The notes beneath the pieces were generated by a model, which was given only the letters and a program-made list of their open reading frames with translations, made no database searches and was not told where the DNA came from. 64,000 nucleotides of DNA from Spirulina subsalsa PCC 9445. Its GTDB lineage: Bacteria; Cyanobacteriota; Cyanobacteriia; Cyanobacteriales; Spirulinaceae. The stretch covers positions 796,530 through 860,529 of the forward strand of contig NZ_JH980292.1 in the NCBI RefSeq assembly GCF_000314005.1, given 5' to 3'. The translations under genes and the position numbers were made by a program. The stretch's first letter is position 1. Each line of letters opens with the position of its first letter. Positions 2,920-64,000 of the stretch are shown piece by piece.

Positions 2920-3010
2920 GTCGGGAATAGGTAATAGGTAATAGGTAATAGACATCTCCCCCTCTCCCCTGCTCCCCCTCTCCCCCTATTCCCCGTTCCC
3001 TGTTCCCTTA
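2920..3010. repeat. Intergenic heptamer array (GGTAATA)x3 followed by a C-rich module (CCCCCTCTCCCCTGCTCCCC...GTTCCCTGTTCCC)
   Basis: Tandem units read directly. The same modules recur at 3816-3990, 4994-5160, 22985-23040 and 49555-49650. Confidence 0.7.
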
Positions 3011-3815: not shown

Positions 3816-3990
3816 AGAGAACAGGGAACGGGAAGGGGAGCAGGGGAGAGGGGGAATAGTGGGTAGTGAATAGCCGAAAGTCTTGACTATTGCCTTTTCC
3901 CGATTCCCGACTCCCTAGGGCGCAAGCATTGCGCCCCTACACCGACTCCCGACTCCCTATTCCCGATTCCCTCCCCAGACAAAACCTAAC
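3816..3990. repeat. Composite intergenic repeat block: GGGAACA-type heptamers, a C-rich module in reverse orientation, and a 45-bp hairpin unit at 3906-3950
   Basis: The 45-bp unit CCCGACTCCCTAGGGCGCAAGCATTGCGCCCCTACACCGACTCCC recurs as its reverse complement at 5003-5047, on the other side of ctaB. Confidence 0.65.
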
Positions 3991-4933
3991 TCAAGCCACC
4001 GTGAGTTAAAAAGGCGATCGCCTGATGGGTAACAGGTAAGCTATCCACTACCATCCCAGTACAAAGTAGCATCATGTACAAGATGGAATATTTAAACATG
4101 GACTTGGCTAATTCTTTATCTGTCGGCGCTTGATAGAGTTGCCAAGCTTTGCGGATAAAGATCACCCCCAAAAGGGCGGCAATCGTGCCGTAAACGACAC
4201 CAGACACCCCCAAGGGATAAATCAACAAGAAGCTACAAGGAACCACCAACAGGGTATATAAACCAATCTGTTGAACGGTTTTTTCTTCCCCCACAATCAC
4301 GGGCAACATGGGAACATTGACCTGGGCGTAATCATCGCGAATCATGAGGGCTAAAGCCCAGAAGTGGGGGGGAGTCCAGAGGAAGATCAGGCCAAACAGC
4401 AGCCAAGCGGGCCAAGCCAGTTCCCCGGTGACGGCTGTCCAGCCTACGAGGGGGGGAATAGACCCGGCCGCCCCACCAATGACGATGTTTTGGGTGCTAT
4501 GCCGTTTCAGGAAATGGGTGTAGATGACCATATAAAAGGCGATGCCGGACAGGGCGAGGAATCCACTCAAAAGATTGACGAAGAGGGCAAAGAGGCTAAA
4601 AGAGAGGACTCCTAGGGCGATCGCAAAAATGAAGGCATGGCGGGGCTGAACACGACCAGAAGGGATGGGGCGTTTCCGCGTCCGCACCATTTCGTAGTCA
4701 ATATCTTGATCATAAATGCAGTTGAGGGTCTGGGCTGAAGCCGCCGCTAGTGTTCCCCCTAACAAGGTGATGAAGAGGAGAAACGGATCCACTTCTCCCT
4801 CGGAGGCAATCCACATCGCGGCCGCTGTGGTAATCAGCAGCAAGGGGATAATCCGAGGTTTCGTTAATTGGTAGTAACTTTTGAGAACGTCTAAGAAATT
4901 CTCGTGTCTGGGCGAGTAACTGGTCCCAATCAT
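3986..4933 (-). CDS. ctaB: Protoheme IX farnesyltransferase (heme O synthase)
   Basis: 315-aa polytopic membrane protein with UbiA-family motifs (DxxxD region, [12 protein letters not shown]). Sits next to ctaA and ctaCDE. Confidence 0.85.
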
Positions 4934-4993
4934 TCAGTTCTTTTCCTTGTTCTAGGGTACAAAATTGATCATTGATAATTGAGGCTTGTTGAC

Positions 4994-5160
4994 TAGGGAA
5001 TTGGGAGTCGGTGTAGGGGCGCAATGCTTGCGCCCTAGGGAGTCGGGAGTCGGGAGTTGATTAGTATTCCCCATTACCTATTACCTATTACCTATTACCT
5101 ATTACCTATTACCTATCCCCTGTTCCCCGTTCCCCGTTCCCTGTTCCCTTCTTCAACAAT
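4994..5160. repeat. Composite repeat block: inverted copy of the 45-bp hairpin unit, (CGGGAGT)x2, (TTACCTA)x6 and GTTCCCC/GTTCCCT heptamers
   Basis: Tandem heptamers read directly. Reverse complement of the 3906-3950 unit. Confidence 0.7.
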
Positions 5161-12205: not shown

Positions 12206-12241
12206 GTCATTGAACCTCCCATCGCTGAAAGCGAGGGATTC
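12206..12241. repeat. Copy 1 of a 36-nt hairpin-containing motif GWCATTGAMMCTCCCRTCGCTRAAAGCGAGGGATTC
   Basis: Near-identical to 20600-20635. The core stem is CGCT-GAA-AGCG. Confidence 0.5.
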
Positions 12242-12260
12242 CCATATAGACTCTTATCTA

Positions 12261-12420
12261 GGGTCTGCTGAATAACACCAGATGCTAGGCTCAACAAGGG
12301 AACAGGGAACTCTTAACAGGGAACAGATTATCTAAAACTGGCACGATTGCCTATTCCCGACTCCCGACTCCCGACTCCCGACTCCCGATTCCCCAACTCT
12401 CGGACTTATTCAGCAAGCCC
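12261..12420. mobile_element. MITE-like element, copy 1 (160 bp). Terminal inverted repeats are GGGTCTGCTGAATAA and TTATTCAGCAAGCCC. It carries internal (CGGGAGT)x4.5 and GGGAACA units and is flanked by TATCTA on both sides.
   Basis: Its reverse complement is about 95% identical to 22818-22999 apart from heptamer copy number. TIRs and a 6-bp flanking duplication were read directly. Confidence 0.7.
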
Positions 12421-12423
12421 TAT

Positions 12424-12642
12424 CTAGACCGAAGTCCCCGACAGAACGCCATTACTGGGCTGTTTGACCACGGGCGCACCGACCGCAGTTAATCCGCGCT
12501 GTTTTACGATCATTGAAGCAGCAACATCCCGATCCACGGTGTAGCCACATTCAGAGCAAGAGTGAACCCTTTGAGAGAGTTCTTTCTGACCTGTATGGGT
12601 TCCACATTCAGGACAAACTTGAGAGGTATAGTCTGGAATAAC
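12424..12642 (-). pseudogene. Remnant of an IS200/IS605-family TnpB (OrfB): the C-terminal zinc-finger region only, about 60 codons
   Basis: The minus-strand translation VIPDYTSQVCPECGTHTGQKELSQRVHSCSECGYTVDRDVAASMIVKQRGLTAVG matches the conserved TnpB C-terminus (YTSQ.C..CG...R...C..CG...DRD.NAA.NI). There is no upstream RuvC-like region because it is truncated by repeats. Confidence 0.65.
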
Positions 12643-20599: not shown

Positions 20600-20635
20600 G
20601 ACATTGACACTCCCGTCGCTAAAAGCGAGGGATTC
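20600..20635. repeat. Copy 2 of the 36-nt motif GACATTGACACTCCCGTCGCTAAAAGCGAGGGATTC
   Basis: Same orientation and about 85% identity to 12206-12241. Confidence 0.5.
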
Positions 20636-20883
20636 TTGGTTCACCGAGTTTCCTTAACTTGACAGGACGTATCCAACCAAGCCAGAGGGAATCTCTCCCC
20701 AAGCGTATTAGTTTCCGTGTGTCCCACGGTACTTAGTCCTCATGGTATAATGTGAAAACAAAAAACAACCCCGTGATTGTCGCAAGGTGAGACAACGATA
20801 TCCCGAAAGGCATTCAGGAGTAAGCAGACAGCGAGAAGAGTTGGTCAAGTGCATGGCACTCTGTTTAATCCAATCTCGTGGGT

Positions 20884-22777: not shown

Positions 22778-22817
22778 TGATCACAGGGAATAGGCAAGAG
22801 GCAAAAGGTAATAATTA

Positions 22818-22999
22818 GGGCTTGCTGAATAAGTCCGAGAGTTGGGGAATCGGGAGTCGGGAGTCGGGAGTCGGGAGTCGGGAGTCGGGAGTCGGGAGTC
22901 GGGAATAGGCAATCGTGCCAGTTTTAGATGATCTGTTCCCTGTTAAGAGTTCCCTGTTCCCTTGTTGAGCCTAGCATAGGCGTGTTATTCAGCAGACCC
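22818..22999. mobile_element. MITE-like element, copy 2 (182 bp, inverted relative to copy 1). It has the same TIRs, a longer (CGGGAGT)x7.5 array, and TAATTA on both flanks.
   Basis: Aligned by eye to the reverse complement of 12261-12420. The TAATTA flanking direct repeat was read directly. Confidence 0.7.
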
Positions 23000-23072
23000 T
23001 AATTATCAATTATCAATTCCCCCTCTCCCTGTTCCCTATTTCCTAGCCCACTGACTGGTATTAAACCATCAA

Positions 23073-24419
23073 TTACTCCCCTTTTTTGAGAGGTAAACGC
23101 AGGGTGAATAGACTCCCTTGATCTACATGGCTTTGGACTTGGATAGACCCTTGATGACTGTGGGCGATCGCCTGAGCAATGGCTAACCCTAAACCTGCAC
23201 CGCCTGTATGTCGCGCCCGGTCTTGAGCTACTCGATAGAAACGCCCAAAAATTTTCGACTGTTCCCCAAGGGGGATCCCAATGCCTGTATCCTGTACCGT
23301 AATCACCGCCTCCTGTTCGCTACGGGCTAAAGTGACTGTGATCATGCCTCCTGGGGGGGTGTAGTGGATGGCATTAGTCAAAAGATTCGCCAAGAGACGA
23401 TAAAGCTGTTCTTCATTGCCCAACATCTTGAGGATTTCAGAGGGATAATAGGCTGTTAAGGTCAGATCGGCTGCGATCGCCAACGCAGAAAATTCCTCCA
23501 GCAAATCCTCCATCAACACATTTAAACAGCAGGACTCCCGAGCCGGAGTTTGATTTAAGTCCAGTCGCGATAGTAATAGTAGATCCTGAACCAGATGGGT
23601 CAGACGGTTATTTTGCCGTTCAATCACCCGCAACGTTTGGCGCACATCCGACTCTGAAAGTTTGGGTTCATCGAGGGTAAATTCTACCGTCGAACGAATA
23701 GCCGCGAGGGGCGTGCGTAACTCATGGGCAGCATCGGCGGTGAACTGTTGGATCTGCCGATAGGCTTGGTAGGCGGGACGCATCGCTAAACCCGATAACC
23801 ACCAACTCGAACCCACCACCAAAATCATCGTCGTCGGTAAAATCACCATTAATTGCCACCGCAATCTGGTTAAATGGGCTTCATATTCAGAGAGCGATCG
23901 CCCCACTTGGATATAGCCCCAAGATTGGTGATTTTGGGTTTTAAGAAATAACGAAATTTCTCGATAACGTTCCCCCTGTGCATCTTGCAGCGTTTGCCAA
24001 GGGGTATGGTCCGGGGGCATAGTCGCCCGGAGATTCTCTGGTATAGATCCTGCGATCGCCAAAACACGACCCCCAGGATCCACGAAACGCACATAGTAAT
24101 CCTCCTGCTGAATCACCCCTGCAATATGGCGTTCCCCCGACGACTCAGGCGGACACACTCGACCATTCACACAAACTACACCGGGGAGAAAATAGCCCAC
24201 AATCGGTTCAACCTGACCCACCTCTTTCAAAGCAGGCTCAATTCCATCATGAAGTGTTCCCGCAACTGTCGCTAATTTAAGATTTAGAGACTGCCATTGA
24301 TCACGGGCAATTAATTCATAAACACTCACCCCGCAAACGAGCAAAATTAACCCCATTGTGGCTGCATATAACCCAGCCCAACGCTTACGAGTGGTCAAAA
24401 ATGCCGAATTATCATTCAT
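23073..24419 (-). CDS. Sensor histidine kinase (two TM helices, periplasmic domain, HisKA, HATPase). CopS/CusS-like by context.
   Basis: H-box AAHELRTPLAAIRS. N/G-box GGAGLGLAIAQAIA. Overlaps the upstream OmpR-type response regulator by 8 bp. Confidence 0.85.
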   Translation of the reverse strand: MNDNSAFLTTRKRWAGLYAATMGLILLVCGVSVYELIARDQWQSLNLKLATVAGTLHDGIEPALKEVGQVEPIVGYFLPGVVCVNGRVCPPESSGERHIAGVIQQEDYYVRFVDPGGRVLAIAGSIPENLRATMPPDHTPWQTLQDAQGERYREISLFLKTQNHQSWGYIQVGRSLSEYEAHLTRLRWQLMVILPTTMILVVGSSWWLSGLAMRPAYQAYRQIQQFTADAAHELRTPLAAIRSTVEFTLDEPKLSESDVRQTLRVIERQNNRLTHLVQDLLLLSRLDLNQTPARESCCLNVLMEDLLEEFSALAIAADLTLTAYYPSEILKMLGNEEQLYRLLANLLTNAIHYTPPGGMITVTLARSEQEAVITVQDTGIGIPLGEQSKIFGRFYRVAQDRARHTGGAGLGLAIAQAIAHSHQGSIQVQSHVDQGSLFTLRLPLKKGE

Positions 24420-25113
24420 AGTCCGTCGCGCAATTCAGACGATAGCCGATGCCATGCACCGTTTCAATCAAGCCCTCACAACCTGCATCCAACAATTTAC
24501 GCCGCAGAAGTCGGATCTGAGCCGGAACGACATTACTCATCGGCGTTGCGTCCATTGCCCACACCTGATTCATGATCTGATCACGGCTCAAAATTTGACT
24601 GGGATGCTGCATAAAATATTCTAAAAGTTGGAATTCCTTGGTGGTCAATGTTAAGGCTTTGGCTTGGGGAGGGTGATGAATTGTAATGGTAAAGGTTCTG
24701 TAATCAAGGGTGAGTTTGCCAACCGTTAATTGGCTAGGTTGTAGATGGGGCGAGCGCCGTTGTAATGCCCGAATTCTGGCTAACAATTCCGCATTACTAA
24801 AGGGTTTGACGAGATAATCATCTGCCCCGGCATCTAAACCCTTTACCCGATCTTCAATGCGGTCTTTAGCGGTCAACATGAGGACGGGTAATGTCTTTTG
24901 GGTGGCTCTTAATTTTTGACAAAGTTCTAAACCGGATAAACGGGGTAATAACCAATCAAAAACCCCCACAGTGTATTGTGTCCAAGGCTGTTGTAAACAC
25001 TCCCAAGCTGTTGCGCCATCCATGACCCAATCGACAATATATTTTTCCCGTAACAGGGTTCGTTCAATGATTGCGCCTAAATCGGGTTCATCTTCGACTA
25101 ATAAAATTCGCAT
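24412..25113 (-). CDS. OmpR-family response regulator. CopR/CusR-like by context.
   Basis: REC domain (MRILLVEDEPDL, D...LPRLSGLELC, KDRIEDRV) plus a winged-helix C-terminus (GIGYRL). Confidence 0.85.
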   Translation of the reverse strand: MRILLVEDEPDLGAIIERTLLREKYIVDWVMDGATAWECLQQPWTQYTVGVFDWLLPRLSGLELCQKLRATQKTLPVLMLTAKDRIEDRVKGLDAGADDYLVKPFSNAELLARIRALQRRSPHLQPSQLTVGKLTLDYRTFTITIHHPPQAKALTLTTKEFQLLEYFMQHPSQILSRDQIMNQVWAMDATPMSNVVPAQIRLLRRKLLDAGCEGLIETVHGIGYRLNCATDYE

Positions 25114-25197
25114 CGCTGGTTTGATTTCATTCTGATTTCATAATTGACTGATATCATCCCCAACAACAGTGTAAATCATCCTTAAGGCACAACTCCC

Positions 25198-26799
25198 ATG
25201 CGTTCCAGTCCTTCCGTTTCCCGACTTTTGACTGGCTCTCTGCTCGGCCTCATGGTGCTGTCACTCCCTACCCTGGGGGTCGCTCATGTTGGTCATGATC
25301 ATGGGGCAGAGTTTCAGTCAGGCACGAGTCAGCCCGCTAGTGGTGTTCGAGTTGATAATGTAACAGCAGAACGGCTGGGTATTCAAATGGAACCTGTGGG
25401 GAGGCGATCGCTCAATGTCGGGATTCGGACGACGGGGGAAGTGGTCACTCAGCCGGATCAAATGGTGATGGTCAATGCGCCGATCAATGGCACAGTGATG
25501 GAACTATTGGTACAGCCCGGGGATCGGGTGCGCAAAGGACAGGCACTGGCTCGGATCATTGCTCCAGAATTGATTGAACTGCGGGTATCGTCCCAGAGTA
25601 ATCGGGTTGGGGTAGAGGCAGAGCTACGAGCAGCGCAGGCCAATCTCACCTTAGCACGGCGTAACTACGAGCGACAGGTGGCAATGGCAGAGGCAGAAAT
25701 CACGGCGGCTCAACAGCAGATGAACCAAGCGCAGGAACGGTTTCGGCAAGACCAGTTTCTCGCTGAGGCAGGGGCGATCGCCCGTCAACAACTCTTAGAC
25801 TCTGAATCCCACTTAGCGACAATCCGTAGCCAACTCACCCGCGCAGAAAGTCGTCAGGCGGTACTAGAAGCCCAGGCCGAGTTAGAGCGATCGCAAGTCG
25901 CCGTCGAAGCGGCCCAATCCCGTCTCCAACTGAGTTCCGCCACCTATCAAGCGCGTTTACAACAACTCAACAGTACCGCCACAGAGCAGGGATTAGTGAC
26001 CATCTCCGCCCCCATTGCTGGACAGGTGGCTGAACGTCCCGTTACCCTCGGAGAGGCCGTCGAAGCCGCCACTACGCCGATTGTTAGCATTGTGAATGGC
26101 GATCGCCTGCGCATTACCGCCAACGTCCATGAAAAAGACCTCGCCCAAGTGGTCAAAGGGCAGTCGGTGCGGGCGAGAGTGAACAGCCTACCTGACCGCA
26201 TCTTTACCGGACGGGTCGTAACCATAGGCGCAAAGGTCGATGGTGAAACCCGGGTCATTCCCGTGACCGCCGAATTAGAGAATGCTGCGCCCTTAAAACC
26301 GGGTATGTTTGCCGAACTGGAAATTTTAACCGCTCGTACCCCTGAGAGGGTGCTGACTATTCCCGCCAGTGCCTTGGTGGATGCTGACGGTCGCCATCTG
26401 GTATTTGTCCAAAATGGCAGCGCCTTTGAGCCAGTGGAAATTAACATCGGTCGTCGTGACGGAAACCAAGTCGAAATTGAGAGCGGTTTATTTGAAGGCG
26501 ATTATGTGGTGGTGCAAGGGGCCTTGCAACTCTACGCTCAGTCCTTGCTGGGTGGCGGTAAGACACAACCCTCCGCAGAAGCAGAACTTGATGCCCCTGA
26601 AAATGCCCCATCCGTTCCCAATTGGGGCTGGGGTTTAGGGGGGTTGGCGATCGCCCTCATTGCCTTCTCCCTCGGTCGTCGTTCCCGTCCTGAAGTGATG
26701 GGACTGAATCACTACCCCCTTGATCCCGCGCCGGATCTCGCCCTCACCACCAGCCACCACGAGGCCATCCCGACCGAAGTCGATTACAACCGCTCCTAA
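25198..26799 (+). CDS. RND efflux periplasmic adaptor (HlyD/CusB/CzcB family) with a His-rich N-terminus and an unusual C-terminal hydrophobic segment
   Basis: Signal peptide, HVGHDHGAEF, a long coiled-coil, beta-barrel and MP domains, and C-terminal GLGGLAIALIAFSLG. Confidence 0.75.
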   Translation: MRSSPSVSRLLTGSLLGLMVLSLPTLGVAHVGHDHGAEFQSGTSQPASGVRVDNVTAERLGIQMEPVGRRSLNVGIRTTGEVVTQPDQMVMVNAPINGTVMELLVQPGDRVRKGQALARIIAPELIELRVSSQSNRVGVEAELRAAQANLTLARRNYERQVAMAEAEITAAQQQMNQAQERFRQDQFLAEAGAIARQQLLDSESHLATIRSQLTRAESRQAVLEAQAELERSQVAVEAAQSRLQLSSATYQARLQQLNSTATEQGLVTISAPIAGQVAERPVTLGEAVEAATTPIVSIVNGDRLRITANVHEKDLAQVVKGQSVRARVNSLPDRIFTGRVVTIGAKVDGETRVIPVTAELENAAPLKPGMFAELEILTARTPERVLTIPASALVDADGRHLVFVQNGSAFEPVEINIGRRDGNQVEIESGLFEGDYVVVQGALQLYAQSLLGGGKTQPSAEAELDAPENAPSVPNWGWGLGGLAIALIAFSLGRRSRPEVMGLNHYPLDPAPDLALTTSHHEAIPTEVDYNRS

Positions 26800-26828
26800 A
26801 CCCCCTTCGATCTCGTTCACTGCTGCCC

Positions 26829-29800
26829 ATGCTCAACGCAATTCTCAAATGGTCGATCGCCCGACGCTGGATTGTCCTGATCGCCACTGTTCTAATCACC
26901 CTCTACGGTCTGCGCACCCTCGGCACAATGTCCTTGGATGTCTTTCCCAGCTTTGCCCCGCCCCAAGTCGAAATTCAAGCGGAAGCCCCCGGTTTAGCTC
27001 CAGAAGAGATAGAGTCCTTAGTGACACTACCCATTGAGAGCGTTGTTAATGGAACTCCGGGCGTGACGGCGGTGCGCTCTACCTCCGTCCCAGGCGCAGC
27101 AGCCGTGCGAATCGTCTTTAGCTGGGATACCGATATCTACCAAGCGCGTCAGCTAATCACCGAGCGGTTACAACAGGCTCAAGCCCGCCTCCCCGATGGC
27201 GTAGAAGCACCTCAGCTGGCCCCCCTTAACTCCCCCCTCGGCATCGTGTTGGAATACGCTTTCACCGCGAAAACAACGCCCCTGATGGAAGTACGGCAGT
27301 TGGTTGATCGGCAAGTGACCAACCGACTCCTAGCCGTCCCAGGCGTAACCCAAATCATCACCTTCGGCGGCGAAGAGCGACAGTATCAGGTCTTAGTAGA
27401 CCCCGCGAAACTTAACGCCTTTGGCATCACCCTAGCGGAAGTTAGCGCCGCCGCGGCCGCCGCCAACCAAAACGGGGCGGGGGGCTACTTGATCGATGCC
27501 GACCAAGAACTTCTGATTCGCGGCATTGGTCGCCTGGAAACCATCGAAGATTTGCAGCGCTCTGTGGTGACGGCGCGGCAGGGAACACCTGTGCTATTGC
27601 AAGACGTGGCCACGGTGACAATTGGACCAGCCCTCAAGCGAGGGGATGGCAGCCTCAATGGTCAACCCGCCCTCGTGATGTTAATTAACAAACAGCCTCT
27701 GGCAGACACACTGACAGTTACCCAACAAATCGAAGCTGCCCTAGAAGAAGTTCGTCCCAGCCTGCCTGAAGATGTCACCATTACCCGCACCTTTCGTCAG
27801 GCTGACTTTATTGAGGCTTCAATTCACAATGTACGGGACTCCCTACGGGACGGGGTGTTGATTGTGTCGGTGATTTTGCTGCTGTTTCTCATGAACTGGC
27901 GCACGGCGGCGATTACCCTCAGCGCAATTCCCCTGTCCATGCTGATCTGCCTGATCTTGTTGCACTGGCTCGGTCTAAGCGTTAACACCATGACCCTTGG
28001 GGGTCTAGCGGTTGCCATTGGCTCAGTGGTAGATGATTCCATTGTGGATATGGAGAACTGCTATCGAGGGCTACGCCGTAACCGTCAATTGGGCAACCCC
28101 AAGCATCCCTTTCAAGTGGTCTATGATACCTCGGTGGAAGTGCGCACCAGTGTCCTTTTTTCTACGGTGATCATCGCCGTGATTTTTGCGCCGATTTTTA
28201 GCTTGAGCGGGGTGGAGGGGCGCATTTTTGCCCCTATGGGCATCGCCTACCTTGTGGCTATTTTTGCCTCTACTCTGGTGGCACTGACCCTCTCCCCAGC
28301 CCTCTGTGCGTTTTTATTGGCCTATGCTCCCCTACCAGAGGATGATACTTGGGTGTCCCGTTGGAGTCAGAAACTCTATCAGCCTGCTCTAGGGTTGGCT
28401 CTGGGGAATTCTCGGCTCGTGCTATTGGTGGCACTCGGAACACTGGTGGCATCCTTGGCTATTGTGCCGGGTCTTGGGCGAGTGTTTTTACCGGAGTTTC
28501 AGGAGCGATCGCTGGTGGCTTCCATGAATCTATTCCCCGGCAGTTCCTTGGCGGCGACTAATCGGGCTGGATTAGCGGTGCAGGATGCTCTGAAGGATGA
28601 CCCACGCTTTGAAACGATTCAAATGCGCTCGGGTCGTTCCCCAGGGGATCCCCATATCGTCGGCTCTAACTTTGCGGAGTTGGATATCGAACTGAGTGAT
28701 CTGGGGATGCTAGATCGAGAGGATACCCTAGAAGCCTTGCGGGCGGAGTTGGAAAAACTTCCGGGAGCTCCCACCAGTGTGGGGGGCTTTATCTCCCACC
28801 GCATGGATGAGGTGTTGTCGGGGGTGCGTAGTGCGATCGCCGTTAAAATTTTTGGCCCCGACCTAGCCGAACTGCGCCGCTTGGGTACGGCCGTCACCGA
28901 GATCATGGCGAATGTCGAAGGGGTGGTTGACCTACAGCTTGCGCCCCAGCTACCCGTGCGTCAAGTTCAGATACACTTTGACCGAGATGCCTCCGCCCGC
29001 TATGGTCTAACCATCAGTACCCTAGCCGAAACCATCGAAACCGCACTGAATGGGCGTGTGGTTTCCCAGGTGCTAGAAAATCAGCAGCTTTTTGACTTAG
29101 TGGTGTGGTTTGACCCTAACGCTCGCCAAGACCTTGACAGTCTGCGCAACCTGTTAATCGATACCCCTAACGGACAACGCATTCCCTTAGCACAACTGGC
29201 TCAGGTGGACTATGGCACTGGCCCCAACTCCATCAGTCGAGAGAATGTGTCGCGGTTAATTGTCGTCTCGTCCAATGTGGCTGACCGCGATCTGGGTTCG
29301 GTGATTGCTGATATTCAAACCCAAGTCCGTCAGCAGATTACGCTGCCATCGGGCTATTTCATCCAGTATGGCGGTCAGTTTGAGTCGGAGCAACGAGCCA
29401 CCCAAAACCTGCTGATGTTCGGGGCGTTGGCACTGGTGGTCATTTCTGTGCTGATGTATTTTACGGTCAAGTCAGTTCCAGCAACGGTGATGATTATGTT
29501 GAATCTGCCTTTGGCCATCGTGGGGGGGATGTTCTCGGTGGCGATTAGCGGCGGTGTGCTTTCAGTGGCATCATTAGTCGGATTTATTACCCTGTTCGGG
29601 GTAGCGGTACGCAATGGCTTGCTCTTGGTCGATAACTATAACCAAAAGCTGGCGATGGGTATGTCTCTCCCTCATGTTCTCTCTACAGGGTCAATGGAAC
29701 GGCTCAATGCTATCTTAATGACCGCGTTCACCTCGGCTCTGGGGATGCTGCCTTTAGTCATCAATGCTGGTCCAGGTCGGGAAATCTTACAACCTCTAGC

Positions 29801-29966
29801 GGTGGTGGTTTTAGGGGGATTGTTCACCTCCACAGCCCTGACTTTAATGGTACTACCATCCCTCTATGCAGAGTTTGGTCGCTATTTGCTGCCGACGACC
29901 CGTTATAACACCATTCAAGTGGAGGCTGAAATAGAAAGGCCAAACCAACCCATTCATCCCACCTAA
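26829..29966 (+). CDS. Heavy-metal efflux RND pump (CusA/CzcA family)
   Basis: 1045 aa with 12 TM helices and two large periplasmic loops. The MLNAILKWSIARRWIVLIATVLI N-terminus is typical of HME-RND pumps. Confidence 0.85.
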   Translation: MLNAILKWSIARRWIVLIATVLITLYGLRTLGTMSLDVFPSFAPPQVEIQAEAPGLAPEEIESLVTLPIESVVNGTPGVTAVRSTSVPGAAAVRIVFSWDTDIYQARQLITERLQQAQARLPDGVEAPQLAPLNSPLGIVLEYAFTAKTTPLMEVRQLVDRQVTNRLLAVPGVTQIITFGGEERQYQVLVDPAKLNAFGITLAEVSAAAAAANQNGAGGYLIDADQELLIRGIGRLETIEDLQRSVVTARQGTPVLLQDVATVTIGPALKRGDGSLNGQPALVMLINKQPLADTLTVTQQIEAALEEVRPSLPEDVTITRTFRQADFIEASIHNVRDSLRDGVLIVSVILLLFLMNWRTAAITLSAIPLSMLICLILLHWLGLSVNTMTLGGLAVAIGSVVDDSIVDMENCYRGLRRNRQLGNPKHPFQVVYDTSVEVRTSVLFSTVIIAVIFAPIFSLSGVEGRIFAPMGIAYLVAIFASTLVALTLSPALCAFLLAYAPLPEDDTWVSRWSQKLYQPALGLALGNSRLVLLVALGTLVASLAIVPGLGRVFLPEFQERSLVASMNLFPGSSLAATNRAGLAVQDALKDDPRFETIQMRSGRSPGDPHIVGSNFAELDIELSDLGMLDREDTLEALRAELEKLPGAPTSVGGFISHRMDEVLSGVRSAIAVKIFGPDLAELRRLGTAVTEIMANVEGVVDLQLAPQLPVRQVQIHFDRDASARYGLTISTLAETIETALNGRVVSQVLENQQLFDLVVWFDPNARQDLDSLRNLLIDTPNGQRIPLAQLAQVDYGTGPNSISRENVSRLIVVSSNVADRDLGSVIADIQTQVRQQITLPSGYFIQYGGQFESEQRATQNLLMFGALALVVISVLMYFTVKSVPATVMIMLNLPLAIVGGMFSVAISGGVLSVASLVGFITLFGVAVRNGLLLVDNYNQKLAMGMSLPHVLSTGSMERLNAILMTAFTSALGMLPLVINAGPGREILQPLAVVVLGGLFTSTALTLMVLPSLYAEFGRYLLPTTRYNTIQVEAEIERPNQPIHPT

Positions 29967-30019
29967 TGTCGGGATATTTCTGTTTTTTATACCTTTTTTC
30001 TAACTTTTGGAGATAGTTT

Positions 30020-30505
30020 ATGAATTCTCGGTTTTGCCAAGCTCTTTTGATTACTGGAGTTGTCGCCCTAACGGCCTGCGGTAATGCCAACATGGTCACG
30101 GATTCTAATGACACGGTTGAAGCAAATTCAACTGCAACACCTTCAACTGAAACAACTGCGGCGGAGGCCCCCACCCCTGATCACAGCGTTCCTAGCTTTG
30201 GCGGTCAAGTGGTGGAAACTGGTGCTTATCATTTTGAGTTAGTCCCGGTGCCTGAAGCCAATGGGATTCACTTGGATCTGTATTTACAAACGGGTGATAC
30301 CCATGAAGCGATCGCCGATGCCCAGGTGGTGGCTCAGGTACAGCTTCCTGATGGTACGTTCAAAGAAATTCCCATGGAATATGATGTTGCTGGGGAACAT
30401 TTCTTTGCGTTTTTCCCAACTTCGGGAACTGGGGAATACAAAACCGTGATTCAGACGGATATCCAAGGGGAGAAAGTCAACGCTCGGTTCAGTTTTTCCA
30501 AATAA
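30020..30505 (+). CDS. Small periplasmic lipoprotein downstream of the RND pump. Possible metal-binding accessory protein (CopC-position gene).
   Basis: Lipobox LTAC, an S/T-rich linker, and a beta-rich domain of about 100 aa. The functional call is from operon context only. Confidence 0.45.
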   Translation: MNSRFCQALLITGVVALTACGNANMVTDSNDTVEANSTATPSTETTAAEAPTPDHSVPSFGGQVVETGAYHFELVPVPEANGIHLDLYLQTGDTHEAIADAQVVAQVQLPDGTFKEIPMEYDVAGEHFFAFFPTSGTGEYKTVIQTDIQGEKVNARFSFSK

Positions 30506-30528
30506 ATGGCTCTTTGTCCAAAAATGGC

Positions 30529-30572
30529 GACGCACTCCCCCACCTCGCGCTCTCCCAGGTGGGGAGTGCTTC
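30529..30572. repeat. Hairpin GCACTCCCCCACCT-loop-AGGTGGGGAGTGC between the convergent lipoprotein and HD-domain genes. Likely bidirectional terminator.
   Basis: 13-14 bp stem read directly. Paralogous to 49676-49716. Confidence 0.5.
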
Positions 30573-30652
30573 GTGAGCCACTTCTGCACGGTATTTTCAT
30601 GTTTTCCGGCAGAGAATGCGATCGCACTGACCGTTCAAGCATTTTCTACAAA

Positions 30653-31138
30653 CTACCAGTCAAAACCCCCCAAAATTATTGTAATCTGGGAGAACAGGAA
30701 TCCAGCCTCCTTTGACTTTAAACGGGGTAGGACTTGCTGATATTTCTGGAGTCGGCGATAGTCCTTTTCGGTGGGTTGTGGGATGCGGCTAATGTCCATA
30801 TTGTCGGTCATATCGGCGATTTTGACTCCTAGGGCGATCGCATTTTCCATCACACGCTGTAAATACTGCTCATAGTCTTCTCCCGGTCGTTTGGTAATAG
30901 CATCCAAGGCTTGAATCACCGGGTCAGAAAACCCTAAATCCCTTAACTGGTCTAGGGTCAAGTCGGAATCCTCAACCGCATCATGTAACACACCAACGAT
31001 TTTTTCCTCCAGTGAGGGAAGGGCGGCCATCACCCGTAAAGGATGGTCAATATAGGGTTTTCCGGCCTTATCCACCTGTCCAGCATGACATTGTTTGGCC
31101 AAGGCGATCGCGTTTTCCAGCCCAGAATCTTTACTCAT
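30653..31138 (-). CDS. HD-domain phosphohydrolase (small RelA/SpoT-like hydrolase type)
   Basis: H...HDxxED motifs (YIDHPLRV, LHDAVED) and IADMTDNMD. The start is most likely the internal ATG MSKDSG rather than the upstream TTG. Confidence 0.6.
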   Translation of the reverse strand: MSKDSGLENAIALAKQCHAGQVDKAGKPYIDHPLRVMAALPSLEEKIVGVLHDAVEDSDLTLDQLRDLGFSDPVIQALDAITKRPGEDYEQYLQRVMENAIALGVKIADMTDNMDISRIPQPTEKDYRRLQKYQQVLPRLKSKEAGFLFSQITIILGGFDW

Positions 31139-32758: not shown

Positions 32759-32849
32759 CCTCGTAGGTTTCTATCTCTCGTAGGTTGGGTGAAGCGAAAG
32801 CATAACCCAACAAAGCACTAGGTTGGGTGAAGCGAAAGCATAACCCAAC
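32759..32849. repeat. Tandem array (2 full units plus 1 partial) of the REP-like unit TAGGTTGGGTGAAGCGAAAGCATAACCCAAC
   Basis: Direct repeat with a 36-bp period, each unit a hairpin. Same family as 297-334. Confidence 0.65.
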
Positions 32850-32907
32850 AAATCACCCAAAAACTATAGCCAAAACTTCAACCAAAGCCAAACAACCAAT
32901 CTAACGT

Positions 32908-36904: not shown

Positions 36905-37339
36905 TTGTTTGCCCGACTGCCGACCCGCTCTCTTTTCCTCCTCTGGCTCATTTATAGCGTTTTTGGCTGGTTACTTCGCCGCATGACCCCTCAATGGCAA
37001 CATTGGGCTTTAGCCGCCTCCCTCATTGTCCTCATGGCCTTAATGTTCACCGCTCCGAGCAGTATCGTCCGAAAATTTTTTAATCATCTCCTCGAATCAG
37101 ATTCCCGCGCCTTTCTCTCCATTGCACTCCTCGCCTTTATCGCCGTCCTCATCCTGACCTGGATTTCCCACTTCATCCAAATTATCCTCCTAGTAGCCGC
37201 CCTTGCCCTAGCCCGCCTAGAATTACAAGGATTAGGTTACAAAGAATGGCCTTGTTTTCTCATTTTAGTGCTGATTTGTCTGGGCGGTTTTGCTCTAGGA
37301 TTAGGCGCTCATCATTGGTATTTAGGGTTTGCTGAATAG
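36905..37339 (+). CDS. Small hypothetical membrane protein (3-4 TM). The true start may be the ATG at about 36983.
   Basis: Hydrophobic ORF. No family recognised. Confidence 0.35.
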   Translation: MFARLPTRSLFLLWLIYSVFGWLLRRMTPQWQHWALAASLIVLMALMFTAPSSIVRKFFNHLLESDSRAFLSIALLAFIAVLILTWISHFIQIILLVAALALARLELQGLGYKEWPCFLILVLICLGGFALGLGAHHWYLGFAE

Positions 37340-37384
37340 GGGAACAGGGAACTAAAATCAAGACATTTAGAGAGATATTCAGTC

Positions 37385-37858
37385 ATGGAATCGCCAGTTA
37401 AAGCCAAATCCCTTGGATTATACGACAGAGACTATCAACTGTGGTTAGAGCGCACCGTTGCCCAGTTGAAAGCAGAGGATTTTAATAGCCTTGATCTAGA
37501 AAACTTAATTGAGGAGATTGAGAGTTTGGGTAGAAGCGAAAAACGAGCCATTGCTAGCTACCTGATGCGGTTATGCGAACATCTGCTTAAGATAAAATAC
37601 TGGGAATCTGAACAAGAAACCTGTTTTAGAGGGTGGAATCTCGAAGTTACTACTTTTCGTTTCCAGATTCAAGCCATTTTGCAAGATAGCCCTAGTTTGA
37701 AAAACCATCTCCGCGCCAGTTTTTTGGCAGAGTATAACAAAGCTAGAACGCTTTTTATCAAAGCCAGTCAACTCCATGCTAACTTAATCCCCCAAGAGCC
37801 TGAATTTACCCTAGAGCAAGCCTTAGATGAGGATTGGCTACCTTGGCGGCCTCAATAG
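37385..37858 (+). CDS. DUF29-family protein
   Basis: LYDRDYQLWLERTVAQLKAEDFNSLDLENLIEEIESLGRSEKRAIASYLMRLCEHLLK matches the conserved DUF29 N-terminal helices. Confidence 0.6.
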   Translation: MESPVKAKSLGLYDRDYQLWLERTVAQLKAEDFNSLDLENLIEEIESLGRSEKRAIASYLMRLCEHLLKIKYWESEQETCFRGWNLEVTTFRFQIQAILQDSPSLKNHLRASFLAEYNKARTLFIKASQLHANLIPQEPEFTLEQALDEDWLPWRPQ

Positions 37859-49507: not shown

Positions 49508-49675
49508 TTAGGGTTGGCTCAAAAAGTGGGGGGTCGGGAAAAGGGAATAATCCTTAATTCCCCCTCCCCCCTGTTCCCTAATCAAAAGGGAGTCGGGAGA
49601 TCGGGGGAATTAATAATTGATTATTATTCCCTCTTGCCTGTTCCCTGGCTGGGTCTAGGGTCTGATGTTAATGAA

Positions 49676-49716
49676 TGCTCCCCCACCTGTGTTCCGCGAG
49701 GTGGGGGAGTGCGTCG
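49676..49716. repeat. Hairpin GCTCCCCCACCT-loop-AGGTGGGGGAGTGCGTCG, paralogue of 30529-30572
   Basis: Read directly. It sits in the repeat-rich spacer after pnp. Confidence 0.5.
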
Positions 49717-49990
49717 TTATTTTTGTTCAGCCAACCCTAGATATTTGCCAAGGCCAGTTATGGAGTCCTCAGATGAAGCATCACTAACCATCCCTGAATA
49801 TTCGCCATTTAGGTCAGATGATGAGTATTAGAAGTGGTTTTCTCTCACCCAAGCGCGAAAGGCTTTCATCGTCTTATTTCTCCCCTCAATTTTACTTTGT
49901 TCTAGATATTGGGGAATTACTTCGCACAGGGGCAAACCCGGAAAATGGGAACTAGCTTCACACTGCATATATTCCCCATCTTGTAAGACA

Positions 49991-52566: not shown

Positions 52567-55434
52567 TCATAACATACTTTTCACAAAAATTTCTCCCCCC
52601 ATCATCTGGACAAATTTCCGACTAATCGGCAATCCTAAACCTGTTCCTTGATGAGATTTTTGTCCCGATTGAGTTTGGGTGAAGGGGTCAAATAAACTGG
52701 GGATCTCTAGGGGAGAAATGCCAAAACCTGTATCTTCAATGGCAAAGTGAATCAGGACTTTTTTAGAACCCTCTCGTTCCTGGTCTGAAGGGATGGATTG
52801 AGTGTTTACGGATACCATAACCTTGCCTTTTTCGGTAAATTTAATTCCATTACTTAATAAATTAATTAGCACTTGACGCAGTTTAGGTTCATCAGTTTTG
52901 ATATATTGGGGAACGTTAGGAAACCGCTCAAAAATCAAATCTAAACCTTGGGATTGGGCTTTCAATAAAAACATCTCCTCTAAAGCATTTAAAAGCTGGT
53001 GTAGGTCAAAAGGTGCAGGGGTAAATGTGACCTTTCCCGCTTCAATTTTCGACATTTCTAGAATGTCATTAATTAATTCTAATAAATGCTCTCCACTCCG
53101 GTTAATAATGGCTATTTCCTTGGCTCCGTGACTCAAGGCAGGATTGCGCGCCATCAGTTGACTAAAGCCTAAAATGGCATTGAGGGGAGTCCGTAACTCG
53201 TGACTCATTTGGGCTAAAAATTCGCTCTTCGTCCGATTGGCAATTTCGGCCTGTTCCTTGGCTTGTTCGAGGGCGGCATTTTGTAGCGTTAATTCGACCC
53301 GTTGTTGTTGTTCTTGTTCGAGGAGTTGGGCTTGGGCGATCGCAATTCCTAACTGAGCCGCTACAGTCGTTAATAATTCTATCTCATCCTCCGTCCACTC
53401 CCGGGCTTTATAGCACTGTTCCAGCCGAATCACCCCGTTAGGCTTCCCTTGATAAGAAGTCCGAATTAACAACATTGACTCAATGTGTAAGCTGTCGATA
53501 ATCGCCTGTAAACAGGCAAAACGGGGATCTTCCCGGACTTGAGAAGCGGCCAATACCCGATCTTCTGCCAATACCCAAGTCATCACCTCATTATTCTCTA
53601 GGGGCATTTCTTGGGCGATCGCACGAGGAGATCCCGTTTCCACATATTCAGCCACACAAGGGATTTTCGGCTCAGAATCAGCCACATAGGTATAAATCAG
53701 ACAACGATTAACATGGAATACTCCCCCAATTTGATCGGCGGCCTTCTGGAAAATTTGCTGCACATCTAAACTAGAACGCAACTCCTCTGTGATACTATTC
53801 AACAAAACAATACGATGATATTGTTTCTCTAAATTAGCCTCGACCTGCTTCCGTTCTGTAATGTCGTTAGAAGTAGCTAAAACACAAACTTCGCCATTTA
53901 AATCAATTAATTCCGCCGACACTAAAGCCGTGCGAATTTCTCCCGATTTGGTGCGATAGGTGGTTTCATAGTTGCGCACCATCCCTTCTTGATCTAATTG
54001 TTTAATAATCCAATCCCGATCTTGAATATTGACCCAAAGATCCAAATCTGTGGGATTTTTGCCTAAAATTTCCTCTCGTTCATAGCCCGTCATCTTGACA
54101 TAACTATCATTCACCTCCAACAAAAGCCCGTCTTTGAGGGTACTAATCCCAATGGCACTGGGACTAGAACAAAAGGCTTTAGAGAACTTTTCCTCCGAGT
54201 TGCGCAGGGCTAATTCGGCTAGGGTGCGATCGCGAATTTCCTGCTGCAACTTCTCCGTTCGTTCCGCCACCGTTTGTTCTAAATTGCGGGAATATTCCTT
54301 AAGTAAAATCGGACGAGTCAGCCACCCCGTCGTCACAAAGCCCGCCCCTCCCGAAAGCACCAAAGCCGCCAGACACAATAAAATCGTATTACGGCGATTC
54401 CTTTCAACATTGTCCTGAAAATTATCTTCAGAAACAATCACCACCATTAACCAATCCAAATTTTGGCGATTTTCTAAAGATGTCACCTGAACAAAATGAC
54501 GGTTTCCTCCAACTAAAAAATCCAGAGATTTAGACCCTTCAATTTTATCCCAATCTTCAAAATAAATCTTAATTTTTTCAGCCGTTTCTTGAATGATCGG
54601 ATTATCACTATCCGCCGCTAAAATACGCTGAGTTCGATTTTGTCGCACCTGAAAAATCGGGTCTGGGGTAGAAGTTGCCACCAAACGCCCCGAACGTTCT
54701 ATAATAAACATCTCGACTTCATTTTCCGTCCTCCAATTTCGTAGAGATTCATTCATTCTTAACAGCAAAAAAGACGTTCCTAGAACGCCCTTAAACTCAT
54801 TGTCTTGATCATAAACCGGATGGGTCGCCGTAATAGCTAAACCTCGACCCACAAAATCCGAATAAATCTCACTCCAAATCGGGCTTTTTGCTTGCAATGT
54901 CGCCTTATACCAGGGTCGAGTGGTAGGATAAAAGCCCGGATTATCTTCGACTAATAGCCCCAATTCATTCGCCGAAAGATTTGGCACTTCATAAATTTTT
55001 AACCGATCAGATTCTAAATCCCGCCGCAGGATTTGTAAAGAATTATCCGTTGTCCGTTTTGCCCCCGCACAAAACCCCTCAACACTACAAAAGTATGTCG
55101 CACTAATCGAGTCAAAGGATTGGATTTGCCGTAAAAAATAACGTTCTTGCAAGTGAATGATATTCTCAGCTACATCCTCCGCCTGAATGCTTAACAACTC
55201 TGGAGCATTAGCATTCAGTTGATTAATTAAAACAGGAGTCATAGTGTAGCGTTGTAGTTGCTCCTCTAGACGAGCCGTTGTCGCTTCTCTTAACTCGTGG
55301 GCAAGATCATTAATGGCTCTTTTTCCATTGCGAATGGAAAACCATCCTGTCACCCCAACTACGACAACCACTTGTAACAAAAAAGGGATAATCAGGATGA
55401 GGCGAAACGGTATTTTTTTTATTTTTTGCTCCAT
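52567..55434 (-). CDS. Multi-domain sensor histidine kinase (TM, periplasmic Cache-like domain, TM, HAMP, PAS, GAF, HisKA, HATPase) ending at an in-frame TGA
   Basis: H-box MSHELRTPLNAILGFSQLM, GAF region, and GTGLGLPISRKF. The preferred start is the ATG at 55434 (MEQKIKKIP) rather than the TTG at 55446. Confidence 0.8.
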   Translation of the reverse strand: MEQKIKKIPFRLILIIPFLLQVVVVVGVTGWFSIRNGKRAINDLAHELREATTARLEEQLQRYTMTPVLINQLNANAPELLSIQAEDVAENIIHLQERYFLRQIQSFDSISATYFCSVEGFCAGAKRTTDNSLQILRRDLESDRLKIYEVPNLSANELGLLVEDNPGFYPTTRPWYKATLQAKSPIWSEIYSDFVGRGLAITATHPVYDQDNEFKGVLGTSFLLLRMNESLRNWRTENEVEMFIIERSGRLVATSTPDPIFQVRQNRTQRILAADSDNPIIQETAEKIKIYFEDWDKIEGSKSLDFLVGGNRHFVQVTSLENRQNLDWLMVVIVSEDNFQDNVERNRRNTILLCLAALVLSGGAGFVTTGWLTRPILLKEYSRNLEQTVAERTEKLQQEIRDRTLAELALRNSEEKFSKAFCSSPSAIGISTLKDGLLLEVNDSYVKMTGYEREEILGKNPTDLDLWVNIQDRDWIIKQLDQEGMVRNYETTYRTKSGEIRTALVSAELIDLNGEVCVLATSNDITERKQVEANLEKQYHRIVLLNSITEELRSSLDVQQIFQKAADQIGGVFHVNRCLIYTYVADSEPKIPCVAEYVETGSPRAIAQEMPLENNEVMTWVLAEDRVLAASQVREDPRFACLQAIIDSLHIESMLLIRTSYQGKPNGVIRLEQCYKAREWTEDEIELLTTVAAQLGIAIAQAQLLEQEQQQRVELTLQNAALEQAKEQAEIANRTKSEFLAQMSHELRTPLNAILGFSQLMARNPALSHGAKEIAIINRSGEHLLELINDILEMSKIEAGKVTFTPAPFDLHQLLNALEEMFLLKAQSQGLDLIFERFPNVPQYIKTDEPKLRQVLINLLSNGIKFTEKGKVMVSVNTQSIPSDQEREGSKKVLIHFAIEDTGFGISPLEIPSLFDPFTQTQSGQKSHQGTGLGLPISRKFVQMMGGEIFVKSML

Positions 55435-56723: not shown

Positions 56724-56881
56724 CACCGATATTTCATGAGTTAATCTTGTTTGGCTTAGGCTACAGGAATTTGGGGACTGTGAACTGTTACAAAGTCCAC
56801 AAATCACTTGTAGCGATTAGTTTGAGTATGAGAGAATGTGGGTTATTTTGTCAGCGTTCGTTAGGGTCTGCTGAATATCCA

Positions 56882-56955
56882 TAGTTTGAGGAAACAGGGA
56901 ACAGGGAATAGAGCGTCTAGCAAAGGTCTACCTCATGAGTCACGAAAATACTATA
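56882..56955. repeat. Direct-repeat copy A (about 72 bp), covering the ureG 5' UTR, start codon and first 5 codons
   Basis: About 85% identical to 57617-57683. Confidence 0.75.
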
Positions 56956-57579: not shown

Positions 57580-57616
57580 CTATAGCAATTTCCCTACTGG
57601 CGAGATACAGAGTCTC

Positions 57617-57683
57617 TAGTTTGAGGGAACAGGGAACAGAGCGTTTAACAAAGGTCTACCTCATGAGCCACGAAAAGGCTATA
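57617..57683. repeat. Direct-repeat copy B, downstream of ureG. It carries a duplicated ATGAGCCACGAAAA start that opens a 24-codon ORF (57663-57737).
   Basis: Aligned by eye to copy A. Confidence 0.75.
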
Positions 57684-62100: not shown

Positions 62101-64000
62101 TCTGCGCTATCTTTTAACCTCTAGTCCGGCCGTGATCTTTACCTGCGAGCCTGATTATCCCTACGCGGCGATATATCTCAGTGACAATATTCAGGATATT
62201 GTGGGTTATAGTGCGGTGGAGTTCCTCAAAGATCGACACTTTTGGCGGACTCATCTGCACCCGGAAGATCGGGAACGGGTGTTAGGGGAACTGCCCCAAA
62301 TTTACCAACAAGGCACCTATAGCCAACAGTACCGTTTTCGCTGTGCCGATGGGGAATACCGTTGGTTATATGCTCAACTACGTTTAACGCGCAATGAGCA
62401 AGGGAAACCTCAAGAATGTGTGGGGTATTGGGTGGATATTAGCGATCGCGTCATCAGTCAAAATGCCCTCCGCTATCAGCTAAAACGCACGGTACTACTC
62501 AAACAAATTAGCGAACAAATTCGCCAAAGTTTAGACAGTCAGCAAGTGTTTGATACCACCGTGCAACAACTGACTCGTGTTCTCCATGTGGATCGTTGCC
62601 TGCTGCATATTTACCAACCGGATCAAGATACACCCTCCCCCCAAAACCTCCATCTGGTGGCTGAATATTGCGTTGAAGACTACCCCTCCTTACGGGGAGA
62701 AGCCCTCCAAATCCCCGTAGTCGATAACCAACACCTCGCCGCCCTCCTCAAGGGCGAAAAGGCCATTGTCACCCCAGATCCCACCACAGATCCCCTATTT
62801 GAGGGACTCACCCCCCTCATTGAACAACTACAGATTAAATCCATGTTGGCCATTTGTACCTTTTACCAAGGGAAACCTAACGGGGTGATTGGTTTGCACC
62901 AGTGCGATAAACCGCGAGATTGGACGACAGAAGATATAGAACTACTGGAATCCGTCGCCAGTCAAGTGGGAATTGCGATCGCCCATGCTCAACTCCTCGA
63001 ACAAAGCCAACAGCGTTCCCTCGAACTCGAAAAAGCCACCCAAGAAGCCAAAGCGGCCAACCTCGCTAAAAGCGAATTTCTCGCCAATATGAGCCACGAA
63101 ATCCGCACCCCCATGAACGCCATTCTCGGCTTTTCCGAACTCTTACAAGACCTAATCACCGACGAAACCAGCCAATCCTACCTGAACTCTATTATTAGCA
63201 GTGGCAGCACCCTATTAGCCCTGATTAACGACATTCTGGATCTCTCCAAAATAGAGGCCGGGAAATTAGAACTCCACTATGAACCCGTCAACCTCCATCT
63301 GTTATTACAGGAAATTCACCAAATTTTCTCCCAAAAAGCCGAACAAAAACAACTGGATCTCATCTTAGATGTAGCACCAACCACCCCCTGGGGAATCTAT
63401 ATGGATGAGGTGCGTTTACGGCAAATTTTATTTAACGTCGTCGGCAATGCCATTAAATTCACCGATCAGGGTTTTGTAAAAATTAAAGTCTGGTGTGAAG
63501 ACATCAAAACCCAGTCGCCTTGTCCCTCAGACTCCCATCCCGAGTTCATTTCCCTCAAAATCCAAATCGCAGACTCCGGCATTGGTATTCAAGATGATCA
63601 ACAAGACATTATCTTTGATGCCTTCCATCAAAACGAAGGACAAAACACCCGGTTATATGGAGGAACCGGCCTCGGATTAACCATTACCAAACGTCTCACC
63701 CTCAAATTAGGCGGCACCGTTACCGTTAACAGTCACCTCGGAGAAGGGAGTTGTTTTGAAATTACCCTGCCTCACGTCCAAGTTACCGAAACCCCACCCC
63801 CTCCCTCTTCCCCTCTGGCCCAACGGGAAGACTTTAATCAACTACAACCCGCTACCTTGTTAGTCGTCGATGATGTAGCCTCTAACTTAGAACTCATTGC
63901 GGGATACTTCAAAGACAGCCACCATCAGGTTTTCACCGCTCAAAATGGGTTAGATGCGATCGCCCAAGCCCAAAGCACCCCCCCCAACTTAATTCTACTC
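59144..64000 (+). CDS. Giant chemotaxis-type hybrid sensor: CheB methylesterase, CheR methyltransferase, (T/S)NEEL coiled-coil, PAS x2-3, GAF, HisKA, HATPase, REC. The ORF runs off the window end.
   Basis: Read contiguously with no stop. CheB ([19 protein letters not shown]), CheR ([20 protein letters not shown]), H-box [31 protein letters not shown], and [17 protein letters not shown]. Absent from the ORF track because there is no stop within the window. Confidence 0.85.

Follow-up and report, generated by a model that had tools for sequence, protein, structure and literature searches.

A probable MITE family with ISMae6/ISMich1-like ends and a heptamer-repeat interior in Spirulina subsalsa

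In this study, we followed up a pair of short inverted repeats in Spirulina subsalsa, and we are confident, with little room for doubt, that they are copies of a MITE that has the ends of ISMae6/ISMich1-like IS5 elements, an interior of heptamer repeats, and a history of mobilization in trans, the last of these being our reading of its ends. The structure itself, insertion at multiple unrelated sites, and ends and a target identical to those of the insertion sequence (IS) family were all observed directly. Judged from its sequence, the element would also be classed as a MITE on the usual grounds, namely, a size below ca. 600 bp, terminal repeats, a duplication of constant length, dispersed copies, and ends shared with an IS. 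The IS that shares these ends, which is ISMae6-like, was found in other cyanobacteria.

Results

The two complete copies, A and B, both lie in the window, which here means the whole 64,000-nucleotide stretch of S. subsalsa PCC 9445 DNA that was analyzed (Table 1). The original prediction held that copy A matches the reverse complement of copy B almost perfectly, and alignment bears this out: apart from the difference in length, the two are ca. 98% identical, with three substitutions and one 1-nt indel between them. The match spans the first G of GGGTCTGCTGAATAA through the last C of TTATTCAGCAAGCCC, and the nonrepetitive core, CTAAAACTGGCACGATTGCCTAT, is the same in both. A heptamer tract of variable length had been offered as the reason that copy B is 22 bp longer, and the difference is indeed made up by three additional CCCGACT units, which account for 21 nt, and by the 1-nt indel. 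The accompanying estimates of about 4.5 and 7.5 units hold for perfect units only, as Tandem Repeats Finder gives 5.6 and 8.6.

Table 1. Positions of the element, its parts, and its relatives (window coordinates unless a locus is named)
Feature	Position	Strand	Remarks
MITE copy A, complete	12261..12420	+	160 bp; ca. 98% identical to copy B, similarity ending exactly at both termini
Left flanking duplication, copy A (TATCTA)	12255..12260	.	Identical to 12421-12426; fits TANNTA of 11/11 parent insertion sequences
Right flanking duplication, copy A (TATCTA)	12421..12426	.	Identical to 12255-12260
Left terminal inverted repeat, copy A (GGGTCTGCTGAATAA)	12261..12275	+	nhmmer E = 3.9e-6; motif as at ends of ISMae6-like IS
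Right terminal inverted repeat, copy A (GGGCTTGCTGAATAA on minus strand)	12406..12420	-	E = 2.6e-7
G-rich heptamer units (GGGAACA type), left arm	12297..12326	+	Pair with C-rich right arm in predicted hairpin
Central short stem-loop, GGCA-CGAT-TGCC	12340..12351	+	Tip of predicted element-wide hairpin; stem kept in centroid structure
Heptamer microsatellite (TCCCGAC) x 5.6, copy A	12355..12393	+	Tandem Repeats Finder, 96% matches
MITE copy B, complete, inverted relative to copy A	22818..22999	-	182 bp; inverted-repeat pairs I2 and I3
Flanking duplication, copy B (TAATTA)	22812..22817	.	Repeated at 23000-23005
Flanking duplication, copy B (TAATTA)	23000..23005	.	Inside preexisting AATTATC/TGATAAT heptamer run, 23001-23018
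Heptamer microsatellite (GGGAGTC) x 8.6, copy B	22845..22904	+	Three units more than copy A; Tandem Repeats Finder, 98% matches
Solo left-end-like terminal repeat (GGGTTTGCTGAATAG)	37325..37339	+	E = 1.4e-3; TATTTA before, GGGAACAGGGAAC after
Element C, probable third, diverged MITE of same superfamily	49511..49737	.	227 bp; ends GGGTTGGCTCAAAAA and GGGTTGGCTGAACAAAAA; flanks TAGTTA/TAGATA; heptamer-like interior
Solo left-end-like terminal repeat (GGGTCTGCTGAATAT)	56864..56878	+	E = 8.4e-4; GGGAACA units after; upstream of ureG-like gene
L003 (FACHB-351), complete element	6264-6390 of L003		Same ends; flanks TAGCTA/TAGCTA
L004 (FACHB-351), complete element	306-414 of L004		Same ends; flanks TAGCTA/TAGCGA

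Terminal inverted repeats, which had likewise been predicted for both copies, are present in an imperfect form. GGGTCTGCTGAATAA and GGGCTTGCTGAATAA are complementary at 13 of 15 nt, and the 15-nt repeat of each copy shows a TC/CT dinucleotide that is swapped between its two ends. With up to three mismatches allowed, the end 15-mer occurs eight times in the window, where 1.8 occurrences are expected and none of 100 shuffles reaches eight. In the window, a profile of the ends (nhmmer) picks up both ends of copy A and both ends of copy B. Between the ends, folding predictions suggest that the entire element is an imperfect palindrome, with the G-rich heptamers of the left arm pairing with the C-rich heptamers of the right arm around the GGCA/TGCC stem. 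The predicted fold has an energy of -63.1 kcal/mol on the minus strand (z = -3.6 versus shuffles) and -44.8 kcal/mol on the plus strand (z = -2.7), and a long element-wide hairpin of this predicted kind is typical of MITEs.

As for coding potential, the longest internal reading frame of copy A has 26 codons, and tblastn found no similarity to transposases in the MITE copies. The suggestion that this is a nonautonomous transposable element thus stands, since it has no coding capacity together with the ends and the TANNTA duplication of ISMae6/ISMich1-like IS5 elements. Contigs assembled by Logan from SRR3926858 match the window exactly and break off within or close to the repeats; they were not counted toward copy number.

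Both copies are intergenic and lie between convergent genes. The neighbors of copy A encode an ABC permease and a hydroxylamine reductase, and those of copy B encode a BMP-family binding protein and an RppB-like kinase. This placement, the greater stability of the fold relative to shuffles, and the spacing of the (GGGAGTC)n tract, which is that of the G4-forming GGGNATC repeats (PMC4692102), would also suit structured intergenic elements that are maintained by the host (as 3'-end hairpins, G-quadruplex tracts, or protein-binding sites) and spread by recombination or gene conversion. We consider such an origin very unlikely: recombination would not make flanking duplications at each new site, and the ends and the 6-bp TANNTA duplication belong to a defined IS family. 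Moreover, a terminator scan returned no terminator-like site in copy A and a single weak match, at the expected chance rate, in copy B, and a search of the MITE region against Rfam families gave nothing meaningful. A secondary host function taken on after insertion is possible, but it would leave the origin of the element unexplained. A promoter scan gave matches at chance level only.

The direct repeats said to abut the two copies, TATCTA for copy A and TAATTA for copy B, are there to the letter on both sides, and copy B entered a TGATAAT run that was already present. Outside the duplicated hexamers, alignment shows the flanks of the two copies to be unrelated, which excludes a larger segmental duplication. 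One could still suppose that the pair arose within these 10 kb by a local duplication, segmental or inverted, and that the hexamers match by coincidence, in that the only two full copies that are nearly identical lie 10.4 kb apart in inverted orientation. The chance of this is negligible in our view, as similarity stops exactly at the terminal repeats, independent copies with duplications of their own occur in another strain and in metagenomes, and the same type of duplication is found at all 11 parent insertion sequences. The original prediction had named two ways in which it might fail, a lone pair of copies within a segmental duplication and hexamers that do not recur at other copies, and neither describes what was found. 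Complete (L003 and L004) and partial (L001 and L005) copies are present at unrelated loci of strain FACHB-351. Perfect 6-bp duplications, in turn, flank L003 (TAGCTA/TAGCTA), L014, L015, and L017 as well as copies A and B; imperfect ones are seen at L004, L013, and element C (5/6 positions each) and at L016 (4/6). Because every target is TANNTA, a 6-bp duplication is not formally separable from a 2-bp duplication with TA included in the element ends. We rejected a TA duplication of the IS630/Tc1 type, which would demand an internal NNTA NNTA repeat in every target; the associated transposase, in addition, is of the IS5 type.

The two S. subsalsa strains share 86 to 91% DNA identity and are rearranged at both insertion sites. 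Synteny with FACHB-351 after the hcp gene stops at window position 12716, beside copy A, and synteny after the BMP gene stops at position 22777. With synteny lost at both sites, no empty orthologous site could be recovered in FACHB-351 (loci L026 and L027). We also noted that a 7.9-kb segment of the window (22778-30722) is missing from the orthologous FACHB-351 locus (L026 4173-4199). This segment contains the RppB-like kinase gene, the adjacent upstream open reading frame (ORF), and ORFs of 533 and 1045 codons, and copy B sits 40 nt within its left edge.

Further copies were sought with the 20-nt right end in a scan that took a single genome for each species; it matched the four loci of S. 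subsalsa FACHB-351 and one locus of a Chroococcales metagenome-assembled genome. The Spirulina copies vary inside by the type of heptamer that they carry, and CCCGAYT-type heptamers adjoin the right end in all six Spirulina right arms. In the window itself, we count two full copies, one probable diverged copy (element C), and two solo ends. The ends of element C are individually weak profile matches (E = 0.5 and 23); its probable status as a third MITE is suggested by the inverted pairing of its ends, its TA flanks, and its 5/6 duplication. Element C also contains a hairpin, CTCCCCCACC...GGTGGGGGAG, which recurs at 30530-30570. Both solo ends (37323-37352 and 56862-56908) have TA before them and GGGAACA units after them and lie just 5' of gene starts (an ORF at 37386 and the ureG-like gene, respectively). 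No convincing right end was found for the former and no recognizable one for the latter.

A scan of metagenomes for end-to-end pairs 76 to 136 nt apart yielded five more MITEs with the same ends. Three of these have perfect duplications (TATCTA, TAATTA, and TAATTA) and two have imperfect ones. Heptamer repeats were seen in none of the five, so the heptamer interior belongs to the Spirulina lineage and not to the MITE type. On one metagenome contig (L015 6546-6730), a MITE is followed directly by the start of a second element with the same ends, and a single TAATTA is common to both; this pair is a tandem or nested insertion at a preferred target. A BLAST search of the plasmid collection found no full MITE copy, the matches being to heptamer tracts only, in an Oscillatoria plasmid, a Burkholderia replicon, and a Halotia plasmid. 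In the literature on S. subsalsa mobile elements, we found nothing specific.

The search for a full-length IS with matching ends, proposed at the outset, succeeded at the level of a family, the ISMae6/ISMich1-like IS5 elements of other cyanobacteria. The last 23 nt of copy A, TCTCGGACTTATTCAGCAAGCCC (12398-12420), recur unchanged as the right end of an IS remnant, L002, in another cyanobacterium. In this decayed copy, a C-terminal transposase remnant (...RNAIEGKFGVSKRRFSLNRVMAKL...) of the PF13586 type, the domain carried by its relatives, lies directly upstream of the identical 23 nt, so that the agreement continues into the subterminal sequence. Two metagenome contigs (L006 and L007) have the same transposase-then-end arrangement, and TAGATA and TAATTA then follow. 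Full-length parent elements were found by tblastn against plasmids, and our sample consists of 11 copies on ten cyanobacterial plasmids (from Allocoleopsis, Microcystis [annotated ISMae6], Oscillatoria, Nostoc, Anabaena, Gloeothece, and an Aphanizomenonaceae strain). Each of the 11 is 1.67 to 1.70 kb long, has inverted repeat ends of the GGGNYKRCTGWWWMA type, and is flanked by a perfect 6-bp TANNTA duplication. The parent transposase carries PF05598 and PF13586, scores 485 bits against NCBIfam NF033578 (IS5 family; cutoff, 275), and belongs to a family with at least 8000 homologues in cyanobacteria. Named members among the matches are ISMae6 and ISMich1; the former, 1686 bp long, is listed in the IS5 family and has 8 copies in the genome of M. 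aeruginosa NIES-843 (PMC2779907). The terminal repeat of this group, GGGYTTGCTGAAWAA, is present in the window element.

We found no ISMae6-like transposase gene in ca. 105 kb of S. subsalsa DNA, and Spirulina does not appear among the named homologues in the best 120 of the at least 8000. An autonomous partner in this genome is thus hypothetical, and the S. subsalsa copies could be relics.

Several other repeats were encountered in the window. A 25-nt GC-rich hairpin, CTAGGGCGCAAGCATTGCGCCCCTA, lies inside heptamer arrays at 3916-3940 and 5014-5038, and the arrays at 3898-3962 and 4991-5055 are 94% complementary and stand on either side of an ORF (3986-4933). A repeat of ca. 128 nt at 20604-20731 opens with a hairpin, CTCCCGTCGCTAAAAGCGAGGGA, and has no match in Rfam; a short copy of it (12208-12241) is located 20 nt upstream of MITE copy A, and in FACHB-351, inverted copies (L004 21-123 and 2401-2526) occupy both ends of a 2.5-kb contig with an ABC-transporter pair. 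A 38-nt hairpin unit, TAGGTTGGGTGAAGCGAAAGCATAACCCAAC..., is both tandem and dispersed in the two S. subsalsa strains (window 32781-32856 and 296-337; L026 4643-4921 and 6632-6774) and is a REP-like family distinct from the MITE. The ureG-like gene is flanked by a direct repeat of ca. 70 nt (56885-56955 and 57612-57683; 90% identical) that includes GGGAACA units. Finally, a 184-nt inverted repeat, 74% complementary and with its arms 9.3 kb apart (53306-53489 and 62829-63012), may represent paralogous genes.

Discussion

How might such an element have arisen and moved? Its IS-derived part is confined to ca. 16 nt at the left end and ca. 23 nt at the right end, and the interior is a long imperfect (predicted) hairpin composed of G-rich GGGAACA-type heptamers, a short central stem-loop, and a C-rich (CCCGACT)n microsatellite. 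Presumably, the terminal repeats, GGGYYTGCTGAATAA, are bound by a DDE transposase of the ISMae6/ISMich1-like group that is provided in trans, and this enzyme cuts TANNTA sites with a stagger of 6 bp to insert the element; repair of the cut would give the TATCTA and TAATTA duplications. After insertion, the length of the heptamer tract could shift by replication slippage, here by three units between copies that are otherwise 98% identical.

It had also been proposed that the element is a mechanism for spreading heptamer arrays around the genome. The proposal is right in part, in that arrays are carried and copied with the Spirulina element. We surveyed heptamer clusters in an unbiased S. subsalsa sample, consisting of the window, L026, and L027, and at four of the seven clusters, the best terminal-repeat match has 4 to 6 mismatches; this is no better than background, as 358 of 400 random 450-nt windows also have 4 to 6 mismatches. 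The nhmmer end profile has no match at those four clusters. Decayed terminal repeats were considered at the clusters at 2926-3008, 3897-3971, and 4963-5149 and were rejected, as the matches there are at the background level.

One alternative is that the MITE family is nevertheless the principal generator of the heptamer (STRR-like) arrays here and that most intergenic heptamer hairpins are decayed copies whose ends have eroded. Clusters outside the MITEs do share the interior architecture of the element (a G-rich arm, a short central stem, and a C-rich arm), and the sequence at window positions 4985-4999, AGGCTTGTTGACTAG, which is preceded by TAATTG, resembles a decayed end with its target (4 mismatches). 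GGGAACA units follow both solo ends, and the diverged element C is also heptamer-like inside. Set against this are the four clusters with end matches at background level, at which the end profile is silent, and the five metagenome MITEs that have the same ends and lack heptamers. Furthermore, the plasmid collection lists an Oscillatoria plasmid and a Burkholderia replicon that have similar tracts, and such repeats were generally not tied to mobile elements in the genomes studied by Rehm et al. 2015 (PMC4692102). On balance, we think it unlikely that the MITE is the main source.

The wider form of this idea is that in S. subsalsa, and perhaps in other cyanobacteria, this IS5-derived MITE lineage was the main agent that seeded and dispersed STRR-like hairpin arrays, with the arrays that now lack ends being eroded copies. 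It has, to our mind, an equally slim prospect of being correct, and we retain an eroded-MITE origin at this low level on account of the shared architecture of the free arrays and the one weak end-like motif at 4985-4999. Were it true, it would provide a concrete origin for the long-unexplained heptamer repeats of cyanobacteria. We infer instead that the MITE carries heptamer arrays to new intergenic sites and yet is not the main source of arrays in this genome.

With the MITE reading, S. subsalsa gains a defined MITE family whose parent IS group is identified and whose target is defined as TANNTA. The family should be useful for annotation and for explaining assembly breaks and strain rearrangements, and because its heptamer copy number varies, it could serve as a strain-typing marker. 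It also offers a clean bacterial case of a microsatellite that travels within a MITE, and thus of one way, though clearly not the chief one, in which such arrays arrive at new intergenic sites. Our current understanding of MITEs and of IS5-family transposition is unaltered, and we regard the finding as sound but fairly ordinary.

Among known elements, those nearest in their ends are ISMae6 of Microcystis aeruginosa and ISMich1 of Coleofasciculus chthonoplastes. The ISMae6 repeat, GGGTTTGCTGAATAA, is the same as GGGTCTGCTGAATAA and GGGCTTGCTGAATAA of the window element, and the 6-bp TANNTA duplication is common to the group and the window element. However, members of the group are ca. 1.68 kb long, whereas the window element is 160 to 182 bp long, has no transposase gene, and consists internally of heptamer repeats that are unrelated to the interior of ISMae6/ISMich1.

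With regard to the heptamers, tandem repeats of this unit length in cyanobacteria, known as STRR, were reportedly described by Mazel and coworkers in 1990. The units of STRR1 to STRR3 are CCCCAGT, TTGGTCA, and CAACAGT, and these are repeats of heterocystous cyanobacteria. As in STRR-type arrays, the window tracts are intergenic, are built of tandem 7-nt units that are G or C rich (GGGAATC and GGGAGTC are both present), and vary in copy number. The window units CCCGACT and GGGAACA nevertheless differ from those of STRR1 to STRR3, and the host, S. subsalsa, is nonheterocystous; the window arrays are only STRR-like. Elhai and coworkers are said to have reported, in 2008, small dispersed repeats (SDR) in Nostoc punctiforme, these being very small hairpins found within tandem heptameric repeats or minitransposons. 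By description, the hairpin inside the heptamer arrays at 3916-3940 and 5014-5038 is analogous; in contrast to the 21- to 27-nt insert of an SDR, however, the main object here is the minitransposon. Rehm et al. 2015 found that heptamer repeats of the GGGNATC type are G4 forming and, in the genomes under study, as a rule unconnected with mobile elements (PMC4692102). The arrays of that type were described as free-standing, whereas the array type in the window sits inside a transposable unit.

A cyanobacterial MITE of similar size is Nezha, from Anabaena variabilis and Nostoc PCC 7120, which is described as 130 to 170 bp long, with direct as well as terminal repeats and a hairpin that is stable (Zhou et al. 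2008, via PMC3184786 and PMC6042816), all of which have counterparts in the window element. The partner of Nezha is ISNpu3, an IS known from another species (PMC3184786), and not an ISMae6-like element. We had considered membership in the Nezha family and ruled it out on the basis of the one cited copy, which has a 10-bp direct repeat, CATTATCTAC (PMC6042816), as opposed to the 6 bp seen here.

BrickBuilt, a nonautonomous MITE of Porphyromonas gingivalis, contains a 23-nt minisatellite, and in most of its copies the ends are not intact or the duplications are not consistent (Klein et al. 2015, PMC4596501). Like the window element, it has IS5-family-like terminal repeats around a body that is a tandem repeat of variable copy number. 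The window element differs in having a 7-nt unit, intact ends, a regular duplication, a host from another phylum, and another parent IS. Even so, the concept of an IS5-type MITE that holds a tandem repeat has its nearest precedent in BrickBuilt.
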